Shown in pieces: positions 7,145-11,610 of a stretch of 64,000 nucleotides of DNA. The translations under genes were made by a program, and so were the position numbers. Positions within the stretch are counted from its first letter, which is position 1, and each line of letters opens with the position of its first letter. The stretch covers positions 41,178 through 105,177 of the forward strand of contig JAPLME010000003.1 of NCBI GenBank assembly GCA_026387175.1. Reading direction: 5' to 3'. Below the pieces are notes generated by a model. It worked only from the letters and a program-made list of their open reading frames with translations, was not told the origin of the DNA and did not search any database. Source of the stretch: Candidatus Omnitrophota bacterium (GTDB taxonomy: Bacteria > Omnitrophota > Gorgyraeia > 2-01-FULL-45-10).

Positions 7145-7348
7145 TCAATGTTTCGCGTCACTGCCGTCAATGCGGCCCGTGTATTCATTCGAGGCATAGC
7201 CCTGCCCATGGCCGCCCCGATACGGACTGCCGTAAACAGCAGGACTGGCTGGATTTTTCAGATGCTGCCTGTTCAGCAATAGTACCGCTATAACAAGAAA
7301 TATTAACGCCAACAATATTTGACTTATAAACACTACCGGCTTCTTCAT
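7145..7348 (-). CDS. Hypothetical small membrane protein (67 aa, one N-terminal TM helix)
   Basis: ORF with a hydrophobic N-terminus and weak SD; no homology recognised. Confidence 0.3.
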   Translation of the reverse strand: MKKPVVFISQILLALIFLVIAVLLLNRQHLKNPASPAVYGSPYRGGHGQGYASNEYTGRIDGSDAKH

Positions 7349-7387: not shown

Positions 7388-7419
7388 ATTGTAGCTGACG
7401 TTTAAACGTCAGCTACAAT
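7388..7419. repeat. 32-bp perfect palindrome ATTGTAGCTGACGTTTAAACGTCAGCTACAAT overlapping the RT stop codon; probable terminator or protein-binding hairpin
   Basis: Exact reverse-complement symmetry. A related 32-bp palindrome with the same GTTTAAAC core is at 50631-50662. Confidence 0.8.
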
Positions 7420-8500
7420 CATGGTATCCAGTAATATATCCTTGAGCGAACTCTCGAGCTTTTTATGTACCAGATCCTTAAACAGCCTATGCCGCAAGCC
7501 GCCTGTACTGGCGTGCTTGCTGTGCGCCACCCAACAGCGGACGGAATCGCGGATCTCCTTCTCATTCATTTCGCCGTTTTCAAAGAGATGAGTAAATTTC
7601 CCGAGCCTTTTTCTGAAGCGCCTGACATTATCAGATGTAAGGCGCCTATAATCCTTATATATCCTGAACCCTAAGAACTTGATCCCTTTCTCGGTATTGT
7701 AAATCTGGGATTTTCCTTCATGCATCTGAAGCGCTAATCTCTCCTTTAAAAAATCCCTTATCTTACCTTTAACTTCAATAAGCGCTTTCTTATCATTGCC
7801 AAAGATCAAAAAATCATCCATATATCTTATGTAATGGCGAACCCTTAATTGAAACTTGACAAAATAATCCAACTCATTTAAGTAAAGGTTTGCGAGGAAC
7901 TGGCTAGTCAGGTTGCCTATAGGCAAACCTTTTACCATAGCTTCTGTGTTACCCCCCCCCCCCGGCATTTTCCGCTATCTGCCTCGCTGAATCGATTATC
8001 CCATTGATAAGCCGCAGTAGAGGCTCATCCGTAATTCTTTTGGCGAGCATACTTTTAAGTATACCGCGGTCAATCGAAGGGAAAAATTTCTTCACATCCG
8101 CGTGAAGACAGAACCTGTTCGACTTTAAAAACCTCTGGGCTCTGTCCAGGGCCTTATGCGACCCCTTATCCTTCCTGCAGGCGTATGAATCGTAAATAAA
8201 AGTCCTGTCAATGAACGGCTCGATAACGTCATGCACGGCATGATGGACTACCCTGTCCCTGAAAGGCGCGGCGGCGATCTTGCGCTCCTTCGGGTCGTAT
8301 ACGTTAAAGACACGGTACTTCCCGTGCCTGTAAGTCTTATCCGTCAATTCCCTGTGCAGTTTCTCGATCTCCTCTTCAAGAAGGAAGTTAAAATCCGCTA
8401 CCGAGTCCCTGTATCGCCGGGACCTCGCCGCCATATAGGCGGAACGATAGAGATTTTCTTTGGAAACTATCTGGGAATACAGGCCGGTTAATTTCTTCAT
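7402..8500 (-). CDS. DGR reverse transcriptase, split into two ORFs (7949-8500 and 7402-7968) by a 1-nt frameshift in a G12 homopolymer
   Basis: RT motifs FFPSID (motif 2), LPIGNLTSQ (the DGR-specific [I/L]GxxxSQ motif 4) and YMDDFLIFG (motif 5). Deleting one G from the 12-G run (plus-strand C 7952-7963) fuses both ORFs in frame (...ENAGGGGNTEAMVKGLPIGN...). Confidence 0.85.
7952..7963. repeat. C12/G12 homopolymer tract inside the RT coding sequence, at the frameshift site
   Basis: Counted directly: 12 consecutive C on the plus strand. Confidence 0.9.
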
Positions 8501-8532
8501 ATCCCTTTACTTCATTATAGTTATGGAACAAG

Positions 8533-8656
8533 AGAAGTCTTGGCACAGCGAATGCCGTTATTGTTGTTGCGATTAGCATTCGTGTTCGCCGCGTTGTTAC
8601 GGTCCGATACACGAGCGTTGGAACTGTCGTTGTTCCAATTGCCGCCGCGGTAGCCT
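8533..8656 (-). repeat. DGR template repeat (TR), about 124 bp, in the intergenic region just upstream of the RT start
   Basis: About 85% identical to the 3' end of the target gene (9269-9392). Every mismatch is a plus-strand T here, which is an A in coding sense. The coding sense is AAC/AAT-rich (CGC AAC AAC AAT AAC...). Confidence 0.9.
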
Positions 8657-8862
8657 ACAGCGCACAACAGCACTTACGGCGCCGCACCTGGATAATGCGT
8701 ATTAGCGCCTTACAGAAATATATTTAAATATCTCCATAAGGCGCCGTGGTTAATTTTTTCTTTTGTCATAAAAAACAAAGAAGGAAGGCGAGCGCCTGGA
8801 CTTCCCCTTTCCATATTCCGCTCCTGATATCCGTAAACATCAGGATTCTGGGCCTATACAAT

Positions 8863-9201
8863 TCAAAGAGCGGACGATTTTAACCAGCCGCCGACCATCT
8901 TCCCTACCTCTATGGACGATTGGCAGAAAAAATCATAAGCATGTATATTGACGTATTTCATATCTTTGGCTATACGCATCATAAAACGTAAGGCATCTAA
9001 CTTTAAATTTACTTTTATCAATATCTCTCTTTTATTTTTTGAATAAACAGCTTCGATCAACATCTCCAGTATATCCAGAAGGATCGTTTCGATCCTGTCC
9101 GCCAGTAAAAACCTCTGGTCCTTCGGAAAGTTCGCGATCTTGGGCAGCATCCAGAGGATCAACCGGTAATGCTTCTCGACTACGGGAGTTATTTTCTTCA
9201 T
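8863..9201 (-). CDS. avd: Avd-like accessory variability determinant (four-helix-bundle family, related to 23S rRNA intervening-sequence proteins)
   Basis: 112 aa; KHYRLILWMLPKIANFPKDQRFLLADRIETILLDI...EVGKMVGGWLKS resembles bAvd/TIGR02436. Positioned between the target gene and the TR. Confidence 0.7.
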   Translation of the reverse strand: MKKITPVVEKHYRLILWMLPKIANFPKDQRFLLADRIETILLDILEMLIEAVYSKNKREILIKVNLKLDALRFMMRIAKDMKYVNIHAYDFFCQSSIEVGKMVGGWLKSSAL

Positions 9202-9210
9202 TCAAACCTC

Positions 9211-9232
9211 AAAAAGGGATGTGTCCCCTTTT
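9211..9232. repeat. Hairpin AAAAAGGGATGTGTCCCCTTTT with flanking A/T tracts, between the target-gene stop and the avd start; inverted copy at 10888-10910
   Basis: Stem AAAAGGG/CCCTTTT with loop ATGTGTC. About 27 of 31 nt including flanks are reverse-complementary to the element in the target 5' UTR. Confidence 0.6.
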
Positions 9233-9262
9233 CAAAAATTCAAAAACCCAAAGAGCTACAAA

Positions 9263-10870
9263 CTAAGGGGAAGTCCTGGCACAGCGAATGCCGACATAGT
9301 AGTAGCGACCAGCATCCGTGTACGCCGCGTAGATACGGTCCGATACACGAGCGTAGGAACTGCCGGTGCTCCAACCGCCGCCGCGGTAGCCTGAGCCGGT
9401 CGCGTTAGTTCCCGGCCAGTCGGTATTAGTTGTGCTTAAACTGCCGTCGCCGTGACTTCCGATAAATAACCTGCCGGTACTATTGCCTACGGTAACCGGC
9501 CTCTCCCATAAATTCCCTGAAAGCTCCATTATTCCGTAATAGGAACCGCCGGAGGCATATCGGCTTGAGGAACTGGTCGCGGCAAATCCTGAGCGCATAG
9601 GACCTGATACAGTACCGTTGTAGGAGCAATTAGCGTTGTTAGTAGCAGTTTCATTATTCGCGCCGGGATTTGTGGGCCCGGTAGGACCAGCGGTGGGAGC
9701 GGTTGGCCCCCAGGCGTATTCATTGGCTATCGGGTTCATCAGCCCTATAGACGCCTTTTCAAACTCAAGCTCTGTAAATGGCCGGAGTCCCGCCCAATCA
9801 GCATAAGCACATAAGTCGGGCCAGCTTACGTAGTTACAGGCTATCCATTCGCCGTCAGTGGATTCGTTCGGTGTGCCATTATTGTTGTAATCACAGTAAA
9901 ACGTTATTGGGGTAGTGGCTGGAATAGCGGCATCACATCGTATTCCACTACGATAATTAGAAGCGGAAGCGATATTAGCGGCAACACTGGTATTTGCCAT
10001 AACATATATATTGGTTACGGATGTTGTGCCCGAAGCCAGGGTTGTCCCGTTACCAGCCCTTTGGTTCTGCTGGGCACGGTTTAATGTATTCAGAAAATCC
10101 CGGTATTGGCCCTGGTTAACTTCATATTTCATCATGTAGAAACCGTTATAACCTTTGGGGAAAGCGGCAGGTATTGGGCCAGCCTGATCGCCGCCATAAG
10201 TATTTGAATTCGGATAATAGAGATTCCCGGTTGCTGTGCCCACAATAATAGAGTCTTCAGAGGATATCTTGTAAGGGCTGGTGGTGTTGGGATAGCTATA
10301 GAAAGCGTTTGTCTCAGTACCGCCTGAACCTACATAGAACGAACCCGTCGGCACATAGACCATTTCTATCGCCATAACTTTAACCGAGATAGAAGCCGAA
10401 GGAGAGACTCCATCTGTGGCGTAATCCCAGTATACGACTTGGTTGGTCCCGGGCCTGCAGAAAGCGCCTTTTTGATCGGCGCTTATTCCGGTACCGCTTT
10501 GGGCGTTATAGCTACTTACTGTCCCCCCTGAAATTAATGTGGCATGGCTCCAGGCTGTATCGGTACCGGCATTCGCGGCGTCGAAGTACTTCACGAATAC
10601 CCAGGCCCGGTCGAAGAAAGTCTGGCCGTTATTGTCTACGGAAGTGAAAGAATTGTCCCAGACAACGTCGAACTTTACGCCTATCGTACCGTTCGGCTGG
10701 CCTGCGGCTTTATATAAGGAGACATTACTTACGATTATATTATTAGCGTAAGCCTGGGAGGTGAATATTGAATAATGGAAAGCGGAGAGTGCTACTAATA
10801 AGAAGAGGACGCGAAACTTAGAGAGAGAGAGAGAGAGAGAGGAAAGGCTACGGGCAAAACGTTTCAACAT
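9263..10870 (-). CDS. DGR variable target protein: secreted, with an FGE-sulfatase / C-type-lectin-fold C-terminal domain carrying the VR
   Basis: Signal peptide MLKRFARSLSSLSLSLSKFRVLFLLVALSAFHYSIFTSQAYA. The FGE-like region runs YEVNQGQYRDFLN...WPDLCAYADWAGLRPFTELEFEKA...GNLWE. The C-terminus ...GRYYYVGIRCARTSP is encoded by the VR. Confidence 0.85.
   Translation of the reverse strand: MLKRFARSLSSLSLSLSKFRVLFLLVALSAFHYSIFTSQAYANNIIVSNVSLYKAAGQPNGTIGVKFDVVWDNSFTSVDNNGQTFFDRAWVFVKYFDAANAGTDTAWSHATLISGGTVSSYNAQSGTGISADQKGAFCRPGTNQVVYWDYATDGVSPSASISVKVMAIEMVYVPTGSFYVGSGGTETNAFYSYPNTTSPYKISSEDSIIVGTATGNLYYPNSNTYGGDQAGPIPAAFPKGYNGFYMMKYEVNQGQYRDFLNTLNRAQQNQRAGNGTTLASGTTSVTNIYVMANTSVAANIASASNYRSGIRCDAAIPATTPITFYCDYNNNGTPNESTDGEWIACNYVSWPDLCAYADWAGLRPFTELEFEKASIGLMNPIANEYAWGPTAPTAGPTGPTNPGANNETATNNANCSYNGTVSGPMRSGFAATSSSSRYASGGSYYGIMELSGNLWERPVTVGNSTGRLFIGSHGDGSLSTTNTDWPGTNATGSGYRGGGWSTGSSYARVSDRIYAAYTDAGRYYYVGIRCARTSP
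9269..9392 (-). repeat. DGR variable repeat (VR) at the 3' end of the target gene
   Basis: Aligned to TR 8533-8656. About 18 substitutions are all at TR-adenine positions, falling in codon positions 1 and 2 of TR AAC/AAT codons (e.g. TR CGC AAC AAC AAT AAC versus VR CGC TAC TAC TAT GTC). The 3' ends are identical (IMH-like, GGCATTCGCTGTGCCAGGACT versus ...CCAAGACT). Confidence 0.9.
10820..10841. repeat. (AG)11/(TC)11 dinucleotide microsatellite inside the signal-peptide codons (SLSLSLS) of the DGR target gene
   Basis: Counted directly; 22 nt of perfect AG repeats. Confidence 0.9.
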
Positions 10871-10887
10871 ATTTCCTCCTGTTTTTT

Positions 10888-10910
10888 AAAAATGGGACAC
10901 ATCCCTTTTT
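10888..10910. repeat. Inverted copy of the 9211-9232 hairpin, in the 5' UTR of the target gene between the promoter and the SD
   Basis: In minus sense it reads AAAAAGGGATGTGTCCCATTTTT, followed by AAAAAACAGGAGGAAATATG. Confidence 0.6.
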
Positions 10911-11036: not shown

Positions 11037-11318
11037 TCATGCCTGCTTTAATAGCCTGCGTATTTCATCGTGATTACCATATGCGATGAATTCTATAAGG
11101 CCCTTCTGTTTTTTAATCAAAATACGCCTATTTGAGGCGGCATCTATCTCGAAATAATCATCCTTACCCGCCATCTTTCTTACTCGTAAATCGGCAAATA
11201 TCATATCCTTGTTGTAATAATTGAATAGCTCGCGGATCTTTTCATCGATCCTGGATTTTTCAGAATGAGGAAGCTTCTTGTATACACGTTCAAAAGAAGG
11301 CTTGATAATAATCTTCAT
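11037..11318 (-). CDS. Type II toxin of the RelE/ParE superfamily (mRNA interferase-like)
   Basis: 93 aa; N-terminal KKLPHSEKSRIDEKIRELF and C-terminal IAYGNHDEI patterns of RelE/ParE. Lies downstream of a small DNA-binding partner. Confidence 0.75.
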   Translation of the reverse strand: MKIIIKPSFERVYKKLPHSEKSRIDEKIRELFNYYNKDMIFADLRVRKMAGKDDYFEIDAASNRRILIKKQKGLIEFIAYGNHDEIRRLLKQA

Positions 11319-11322
11319 GCAT

Positions 11323-11610
11323 TTATGATGCCTTATGAAGATGTCTTATAGCCGCATCAGCGCTGTCAAACGCCTTTCCTTTCGCGGAGGCAAGCTTTTC
11401 GATTTTCTTCCATTCCTGCGGTGTATAAGGGTTATCCTCTTTGATTGTTGTGGTCACTCTTAATAACATAAAACCACCTGAAGCCGCTTTAAAGGCTATT
11501 TCGGATCCTTCTTTAAGGCCGAGCAAAGCCCTCACGGCTCTTGGAATGGTAGTCTGACCTTTTGAGGTAATATGCGACATGTAATATCTGCCCTTATTAA
11601 GTGTTTTCAT
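11323..11610 (-). CDS. AbrB/MazE/SpoVT-family antitoxin (swapped-hairpin DNA-binding domain)
   Basis: SKGQTTIPRAVRALLGLKEGSEIAF is an AbrB-type motif. The gene is 4 bp upstream of the toxin gene. Confidence 0.7.
   Translation of the reverse strand: MKTLNKGRYYMSHITSKGQTTIPRAVRALLGLKEGSEIAFKAASGGFMLLRVTTTIKEDNPYTPQEWKKIEKLASAKGKAFDSADAAIRHLHKAS

Follow-up and report, generated by a model that had tools for sequence, protein, structure and literature searches.

Evidence for a chromosomal diversity-generating retroelement in an Omnitrophota bacterium whose reverse transcriptase gene carries an out-of-frame poly-G tract

How could a retroelement go on diversifying its target gene when the gene for its own reverse transcriptase (RT) is out of frame? 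The question is raised by a locus in a 64,000-nt stretch of DNA from a Candidatus Omnitrophota bacterium (assembly GCA_026387175.1, contig JAPLME010000003.1, positions 41,178 to 105,177 of the forward strand; hereafter the window), where the original prediction, made from the letters alone, recognized the signature of adenine-specific mutagenic retrohoming. The best explanation, which we consider highly probable, is that the locus is a chromosomal diversity-generating retroelement (DGR) of this bacterium, arranged in the canonical order on the minus strand, with an RT that carries an out-of-frame poly-G tract. Apart from the RT gene broken by a run of twelve G (G12), the element is an ordinary member of the known DGR family.

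Adenine-specific repeat pair and the cassette around it

The core of the locus is a minus-strand direct repeat of 123 nt, composed of a template repeat (TR) and a variable repeat (VR), the latter forming the end of the target gene. Its 3' boundary resembles the initiation of mutagenic homing (IMH) sequence of the VR and its TR counterpart (IMH*).

8534..8656, minus strand: TR, with 37 adenines and 13 AAY codons; its IMH*-like 3' end is 8534-8556
9270..9392, minus strand: VR, the last ~41 codons of the target gene, delimited by the repeat alignment
9270..9292, minus strand: IMH-like 3' end of the VR, GGCATTCGCTGTGCCAGGACTTC, undiversified, with a fixed G at 9276, identical in three VR alleles
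9263..10870, minus strand: DGR target gene, 535 aa, MCX5677658.1, with a signal-peptide-like N-terminus and a C-terminal domain of the formylglycine-generating enzyme (FGE)-sulfatase/C-type lectin (CLec) type

The segments paired in the original prediction (8536-8656 and 9272-9392) are real, and the ungapped alignment extends two bases further, giving an offset of 736 and 85% identity. It contains 18 mismatches. The claim that about 18 substitutions are confined to TR adenines was borne out by exact alignment with tabulation of the mismatched bases: all 18 are a plus-strand T in the TR, i.e., an A in the minus coding sense, and the appreciable share of mismatches at other TR bases that would speak against such a pattern was not observed (0/18). 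With 37 A among the 123 TR positions, the hypergeometric probability of this outcome is 1.0e-11. The substitutions from TR to VR comprise nine A>G, eight A>T and one A>C. Counted in the frame of ORF 9263..10870 (ORF, open reading frame), ten fall on codon position 1, eight on position 2 and none on position 3, as had been proposed; the accompanying statement that the codons hit are AAC or AAT holds for 16 mismatches, while GAC and AAG account for the remaining two. None of the 13 TR codons of the form AAY is left unaltered in the VR. The worked example of the prediction proved exact, TR CGC AAC AAC AAT AAC corresponding to VR CGC TAC TAC TAT GTC, which reads ...GRYYYVGIRC. Within the window, we found neither a further TR copy or VR, even when any base was permitted at the TR A positions, nor a second RT.

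An ordinary diverged duplication, a gene conversion tract or the footprint of a base-editing deaminase, with no retroelement involved, has nothing in its favor beyond the existence of a repeat. The differences fall 18/18 on one base type in one copy (P ~1e-11) and at codon positions 1 and 2 only, their products are G, T and C and not one base, genes for an RT and for Avd adjoin, and the same pattern is found in many relatives. The mismatch pattern and the VR alleles of different samples, described below, effectively refute this reading, to which we attach next to no credence.

The diversified sites number 17 and span 9294-9376; diversification stops upstream of the 23-nt IMH-like segment with its fixed A/G difference from the TR. 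Where roughly 20 nt had been described as identical save for one position, the 3' 23 nt of TR and VR match except at window positions 8540/9276, where TR AAG is opposed to VR AGG (Lys->Arg). This TR-A/VR-G difference is unchanged in all three VR alleles and occurs at the same place in the related loci L001, L090 and L092. Since it is fixed in all alleles and present in three related species, this 18th mismatch is not one of the diversified sites. These observations support the view that the single 3' difference behaves as the boundary between IMH and IMH*, as these features are defined elsewhere (PMC5758913), outside the diversified zone.

The repeats are embedded in a cassette whose parts all lie on the minus strand in the order target-VR, avd, leader (~200 nt, non-coding), TR and RT, the start codon of the last being located ~33 nt past the TR.

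8863..9201, minus strand: gene of the Avd accessory protein, 112 aa, MCX5677657.1
7949..8500, minus strand: N-terminal part of the RT, 183 aa, MCX5677656.1, RVT_1 profile positions 8-106, ending at TAA straight after the G run
7402..7968, minus strand: C-terminal part of the RT, 188 aa, RVT_1 positions 116-205, with the motifs LPIGNLTSQ and YMDD, in the +1 frame relative to the N-terminal part

The Avd assignment is firm: the protein matches Pfam bAvd (1.8e-19) and NCBIfam NF033474 DivGenRetAVD at 103 bits, which passes the equivalog cutoff of 80, and the NCBI record is already named as a DGR Avd. No DGR-specific RT model exists in NCBIfam. The motif of the IGxxxSQ type is a signature of DGR RTs, and the RT, once its frame is repaired, possesses both LPIGNLTSQ and YMDD. 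Its best match among solved structures is 8ub7_A (E=9e-48; group II intron RTs follow at 1e-23), which is 100% identical to the brt product of Bordetella phage BPP-1, while its closest relatives are encoded by Omnitrophota. The neighbors of the cassette, which include polA, glgA, a toxin-antitoxin pair and a response regulator, are chromosomal and not phage-like.

As for the target, Pfam PF03781 (FGE-sulfatase) covers residues 242-532 of 535 with E=1.2e-15 and reaches the VR. A profile of the C-terminal domain built from six relatives matches structures of formylglycine-generating enzymes (E ~5e-7); a phmmer search of the whole target against PDB sequences gave no match, so that the profile was required. 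At the level of sequences and profiles, the VR is thus located at the C-terminus of a ligand-binding target of the CLec/FGE fold.

Relatives of the DGR were taken from genomes and metagenomes; labels such as L001 denote loci and those such as P0128 proteins. Seven of them share the target-avd-TR-RT order, and their TR/VR mismatches lie on TR adenines as follows: 15/15 in L001, 12/12 in L092, 12/12 in L095, 17/19 in L090, 15/15 in L181, 19/19 in L182 and 18/18 in L184. The TR is strongly conserved in the relatives, with every AAY adenine invariant. Two particular arrangements were noted among the related loci, namely a DGR with two tandem FGE-type target genes (L170/L171 1-2619) and a 64-nt tandem duplication just past the RT (L001 3503-3636).

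By look-up of exact proteins, we retrieved this cassette from a number of public runs, in short contigs that had been assembled independently. Where these contigs could be anchored, their DNA shows no mismatch with the window over the avd, spacer, TR and RT-5' portions (~0.9-1.2 kb covered), and six of seven additional contigs match it exactly for up to 3.6 kb that lie upstream of the target gene and extend into it. The two contigs that reach the VR (L083 and L087, from runs SRR20698639 and ERR15302169) bear different VR alleles: the window differs from L083 at 12 sites and from L087 at 16, and the two differ from each other at 16, all at TR adenines. Compared with the TR, the three alleles present 49 differences, 49 of which are at A sites. 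The VR is the sole sequence seen to differ between these sampled populations; because this is what mutagenic retrohoming predicts, the comparison of alleles supports recent activity of the DGR in nature. The proposed signature of adenine-specific retrohoming is therefore supported by the A-only mismatches, Avd, the RT, the target domain and the sample-specific VR alleles.

The poly-G tract interrupting the RT gene

The two RT ORFs overlap at AATGCC-G12-TAACAC, and a tract of 11 or 14 G would merge them into a single ORF of 365 or 366 aa.

7952..7963, minus strand: G12 homopolymer (C12 on the plus strand), in a length-variable linker before the IGNLTSQ motif

This is the only homopolymer of at least 9 bases in the 64 kb, and GGG makes up 17% of the Gly codons in the long ORFs of the window. 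The tract sits in a loop before IGxxxSQ that Brt does not have. The failure of the RT is confined to the DNA reading frame, because changing one base restores an ORF of 365 aa and the half past the tract evolves under purifying selection; no stops or frameshifts were found beyond G12.

A G run at this linker recurs in several related lineages, where its length varies in relation to the frame. The entries below give the locus, the identity of its RT to that of the window, the tract, the lengths that would be in frame and the resulting state.

window: RT 100%; G12; in-frame lengths 11/14; out of frame
L181: RT 91%; G5AG7 (13 nt); in-frame lengths 11/14; out of frame
L001: RT 81%; G9; in-frame lengths 9/12; in frame
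L169: RT 76%; G9; in-frame lengths 9/12; in frame
L186: RT 74%; G13; in-frame lengths 12/15; out of frame
L184: RT 73%; A9G14; in-frame lengths 12/15; out of frame
L160: RT 47%; G10; in frame

Hence tract lengths of both states, G9, G9 and G10 in frame and G12, 13 nt, G13 and G14 out of frame, are present among close relatives, as in contingency loci. Each out-of-frame gene yields one intact ORF of 360-382 aa after a single tract-length change. The protein search revealed further truncated proteins with out-of-frame tails after a Gly run (P0130, perhaps also P0128 and P0131). Both RT halves are in one frame in 159 of 162 related loci, the three exceptions being the window element and its copies; most of the 162 loci are without a long G run. 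Locus L185 presented a run of G24, which was dismissed as an artefact of a contig at 2.3x coverage. In viral contigs, a search for the sequence context of the G run returned 0 matches.

In pairs of lineages that are both out of frame (OFF-OFF pairs), the ratio of nonsynonymous to synonymous substitutions (dN/dS) in the downstream RT half is 0.08-0.17, the same as in intact relatives and as in the upstream half. For the window and L181, this half gives a proportion of synonymous differences (pS) of 0.49 and an omega of 0.12. Because the downstream half is constrained as in intact relatives, the out-of-frame RT genes are not decaying and, to judge from these comparisons, must for most of their past have given rise to the complete enzyme. 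Clean A-only VRs are also present in those OFF-state elements whose VR is on the contig (window, L181 and L184), as well as in L182, whose RT is not assigned to either state.

These data bear directly on the notion that the DGR is a dying relic, its RT permanently inactivated by a slip and its TR/VR differences left over from past activity. The RT is indeed out of frame in all assemblies of the strain. Against this stand the VR alleles, which differ between samples while the flanking DNA has zero substitutions, the lack of non-adenine TR/VR mismatches, the RT without additional stops or frameshifts, and the purifying selection on the downstream half, which holds even between two out-of-frame lineages at pS ~0.5. 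We therefore regard a relic as distinctly improbable. Very recent, independent inactivations of the RT are a possible explanation; given the mutability of the tract, they shade into the switch that is discussed below.

Long G runs are error-prone in short-read sequencing, and the frameshift might be an artefact, the true tract being in frame (e.g., G11) and miscalled as G12 in short-read assemblies of an intact and ordinary DGR. Several contigs end near the tract, 6 nt past it in L082 and 7 nt before it in L084, those of L182 and L183 stop ~25 nt after G11, and the G24 of L185 is evidently spurious. In contrast, the same G12 was obtained in the NCBI metagenome-assembled genome (MAG) and in three separately assembled runs, in four lineages drawn from separate projects the frame is broken every time, at tract lengths that vary, and tracts of G9-G10 are in frame. 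An error would need to be the consensus in every case. Such an artefact is, in our estimate, unlikely, though less so than a relic.

The remaining reading extends the best explanation. It sees the poly-G tract as a built-in switch or throttle on hypermutation, acting via DNA phase variation, RNA polymerase slippage or the ribosome, and we consider the arguments for and against it to be evenly balanced. In its favor, the G run occupies the same linker in several lineages, out of frame in the window, L181, L186 and L184 and in frame in L001, L169 and L160, with a frame otherwise shared by 159/162 related loci and reparable in each out-of-frame gene by a single tract-length change. The constraint on the downstream half in OFF-OFF pairs, the A-only VRs of out-of-frame elements, the low share of GGG among the Gly codons of the window and the placement of the linker in a loop not found in Brt point the same way. 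A second simple repeat is located in the target gene of both the window and L001.

10820..10841, minus strand: (TC)10-11 dinucleotide repeat in the signal-peptide region of the target, encoding SLSLSLS

This is the only dinucleotide repeat of at least six units in the window, and the L001 ortholog has (TC)18 (L001 27-63). Several results do not favor a switch. We detected no tract-length polymorphism between assemblies of the strain (G12 in 4/4; (TC)n identical in 8/8), and neither the exact allele look-ups nor the protein search found an in-frame long-tract allele. The evidence is, moreover, wholly comparative.

Nor do the frame offsets of the out-of-frame lineages (+1, +2, +1 and +2) fit one programmed ribosomal frameshift. 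Neither a conserved offset nor a common slippery motif, as expected for programmed frameshifting or transcriptional slippage, was found, and relatives with G9 are in frame without any shift. As the offsets differ, we rejected a prfB-like +1 frameshift at GGG-TAA as a general explanation. Homopolymers of 12-14 nt and an in-frame A_AAA_AAG are slippery in principle. In L184 (2416-2438), the A9 that precedes G14 forms an in-frame A_AAA_AAG heptamer, a -1 slip at which restores the RT frame.

By homology to BPP-1, an RT-Avd complex would reverse-transcribe the TR RNA and misincorporate opposite adenines, and the mutagenised cDNA would then replace the VR, recoding the 13 AAY codons. The recoding space would amount to ~15^13 peptides and would never include a stop codon; the recoded residues would form part of the ligand-binding face of an FGE/C-type-lectin-fold protein that is secreted or located at the surface. 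With G12, and hence a broken frame, in all assemblies of the strain, the complete RT would have to depend on slippage, either of the tract to 11 or 14 G in a minority of cells or transcripts, or of the ribosome. We can only tentatively propose, with somewhat more doubt than confidence, that in this Omnitrophota DGR clade the RT is gated by a hypermutable poly-G tract, the gene being out of frame in the DNA of most cells, the complete enzyme being made only via replicative, transcriptional or ribosomal slippage and hypermutation occurring stochastically in a subpopulation. That an RT interrupted by poly-G and yet constrained represents a functional new variant feature is a closer call, falling at most slightly on the doubtful side.

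Several points weigh against the best explanation itself. At the level of the DNA reading frame, the RT gene is not intact, G12 dividing it into two ORFs, and the tract is the same in all four assemblies (the NCBI MAG of the window and the separately assembled Logan contigs L081, L082 and L088). Exact look-ups among 15 billion proteins detected no product of a G8, G10, G11, G13 or G14 allele of this strain. The contigs with alternative VR alleles stop short of the G tract, leaving the RT state of those populations uncovered. The nearest hairpin or cruciform after the IMH is 32 nt away, weak (region z = -0.6) and missing in L181. Finally, reverse transcription and retrohoming are steps that we infer by homology.

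Leader RNA and surroundings of the target gene

Between avd and the TR, the cassette contains a conserved RNA leader, the folding of which involves the TR itself. Rfam (at gathering thresholds) and a tRNA scan gave no matches in the whole window.

8657..8855, minus strand: DGR RNA leader between avd and TR, conserved in relatives, with helices predicted by RNAalifold and compensatory changes
8822-8846, minus strand: leader hairpin P1, a 5' hairpin with compensatory changes
8791-8818, minus strand: leader block conserved in relatives, GAATATGGAAAGGGGAAGTCCAGGCGCT
8520..8544, minus strand: 3' end of the TR with its TR-specific flank, GCCAAGACTTCTCTTGTTCCATAAC; by pairing with the leader block, it makes the TR a closed loop

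The GGCGCU of the leader block pairs with AGCGCC (within 8673-8688), ~20 nt upstream of the TR, and the rest of the block forms a long-range helix with the TR 3' end and flank. The partners of the long-range helix co-vary by lineage, being TATGGAA:TTCCATA in the window, ATACAAC:GTTGTAT in L090, CGCAACC:GGTTGCG in L091 and AGAACTA:TAGTTCT in L093. In a permutation test comparing pairing within and across loci, none of 20,000 permutations (0/20000) reached the observed value, and RNAalifold, applied to nine lineages, predicted the long-range helix unaided, with three compensatory pairs. We show by such comparison that the leader-TR transcript can fold with the leader block paired to the TR 3' end and flank. 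The covariation supports an RNA duplex flanking the TR that resembles those of the "cPRT Stop" type. The ribonucleoprotein of BPP-1 has duplexes flanking the template, and "cPRT Stop" duplexes joining upstream and downstream segments have been predicted for 207 DGRs (10.1101/2023.10.23.563531); by analogy, the leader-TR duplex would have the same function. The leader-TR helices offer a starting model for DGR RNAs in which the structured segment is located upstream, and not downstream, of the template.

In 8/8 lineages, the leader block also shows perfect Watson-Crick complementarity to 10-12 nt at the VR end (window 9263-9281). This complementarity takes in the VR-specific G and 2-6 nt past the homology boundary, while the upstream part of the block pairs with the TR-specific flank. 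As a weaker lead, the block could help to direct the cDNA towards the VR instead of the TR. This target-pairing role is not separable from the G-U-tolerant pairing of the block with the TR and is regarded here as a lead.

Downstream of the VR, a small hairpin was found, an inverted copy of which is located at 10883-10910, upstream of the start codon of the target, so that the pair brackets the target gene.

9211..9238, strand not assigned: 28-nt hairpin AAAAGGG-loop-CCCTTTT, 32-59 nt 3' of the VR

The element has only these two copies in the 64 kb. The copy downstream of the VR is without a counterpart in the sister lineage L181 and resembles an insertion of ~23 nt flanked by a TTTTTGA duplication; rather than belonging to the core of the DGR, the hairpin probably represents a terminator or a small repeat element. 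We considered the hairpin pair as the borders of an invertible or mobile target cassette, or as a BPP-1-type cruciform, and rejected both, as L181 has no hairpin and L172, L170 and L095 have no bracket. Elsewhere in the clade, a hairpin spans the VR end in L090 and L092, and L001 has a long palindrome. A GC-rich inverted repeat downstream of the IMH is present in 34% of DGRs and is not universal (PMC5758913). Directly after the target stop codon, at 9241-9262, the motif TTTGTAG..CTTTGG..TTTTG is kept in L001, L090, L092, L095 and L181 amid variable surroundings.

Three independent Logan contigs (L174, L176 and L178) that cover the upstream region and the N-terminus of the target all stop at window position 10184, at about the start of the FGE-type domain; this common end may stem from a domain that is paralogous or polymorphic in the communities concerned. 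Immediately upstream of the target, a two-gene module at 11037-11610 (minus strand) shows sub-threshold Pfam similarity to a ParE-like toxin and a PrlF/MazE-like antitoxin. At the opposite end of the cassette, directly after the RT, there is an ORF of 67 aa (7145-7348, minus strand), whose product is hydrophobic in an N-terminal segment and Gly-rich in its tail. The ORF at the same position in one other DGR lineage (L172 4540-4743; L173 1933-2136) shows 69% identity to it. We do not claim it as an accessory gene, since L172 and L173 alone share it and Pfam gave no match.

Comparison with known systems

The prototype for comparison is the DGR of Bordetella phage BPP-1 (mtd-avd-TR-brt). The window element shares with it the order of a target with a C-terminal VR, avd, TR and RT, the A-only differences from TR to VR, the 3' boundary of the IMH/IMH* type and the Avd family, and Brt is the closest solved relative of its RT. 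The flanking of the template by RNA duplexes is likewise a property of the BPP-1 bRT-Avd-RNA complex (10.1101/2023.10.23.563531). The differences are as clear. In contrast to the phage-borne BPP-1 system, the window DGR is chromosomal and bacterial, and its target is of the FGE-sulfatase type and not Mtd. Whereas BPP-1 has a 140-nt spacer after the TR, the structured RNA of the window, ~200 nt, is upstream of the TR, with ~33 nt from the TR to the RT start. Unlike BPP-1, it lacks a GC-rich cruciform directly after the IMH, and its RT is interrupted by poly-G in a loop that Brt does not have.

Chromosomal DGRs with a target of the FGE/C-type-lectin fold are exemplified by Treponema TvpA. The window element agrees with surveyed DGRs of this kind (Wu et al. 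2018 PMC5758913; Roux et al. 2021 PMC8144416) in its single C-terminal VR, secreted or surface target, Avd and readily predicted IMH. It differs from them in lineage, as the latter survey names Omnitrophota only within the pooled Planctomycetes-Verrucomicrobia-Chlamydiae (PVC) group (PMC8144416). It adds a clean, demonstrably active DGR from Omnitrophota, which diversifies a secreted protein of the FGE/lectin fold. This phylum is poorly studied and comprises very small, possibly host-dependent bacteria. The diversified target probably mediates attachment.

We found no mention of RT genes interrupted at homopolymers in the two DGR surveys (PMC5758913 and PMC8144416), no literature that links a DGR RT to a homopolymer switch or slippage, and no report, in the searchable literature, of a mutator enzyme gated by a poly-G/C tract. 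According to a study of Bacteroides DGRs, the mechanisms controlling mutagenic retrohoming "await discovery" (10.1101/2024.11.15.621889). If true, gating by poly-G would constitute a genetically encoded throttle on a mutator and would explain in concrete terms how DGRs are kept in check. A directly testable regulatory mechanism is offered by this clade, in which the RT repeatedly falls out of frame at a slippery tract yet remains under purifying selection, and the target continues to be diversified. Annotation pipelines and DGR surveys that demand an intact RT will miss such elements.

The closest parallels to the tract itself are the poly-G/C contingency loci of Campylobacter, Neisseria, Helicobacter and Mycobacterium (PMC8355987, PMC2831843). 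Like them, the RT gene contains, at one fixed position, a G run of 9-14 nt whose length varies between close lineages, in or out of frame, while the rest of the gene is intact and constrained. Unlike them, it presents G12 in all assemblies of the strain, without demonstrated within-population length variation or reversible switching, and the gene that would be gated is the mutator enzyme itself.

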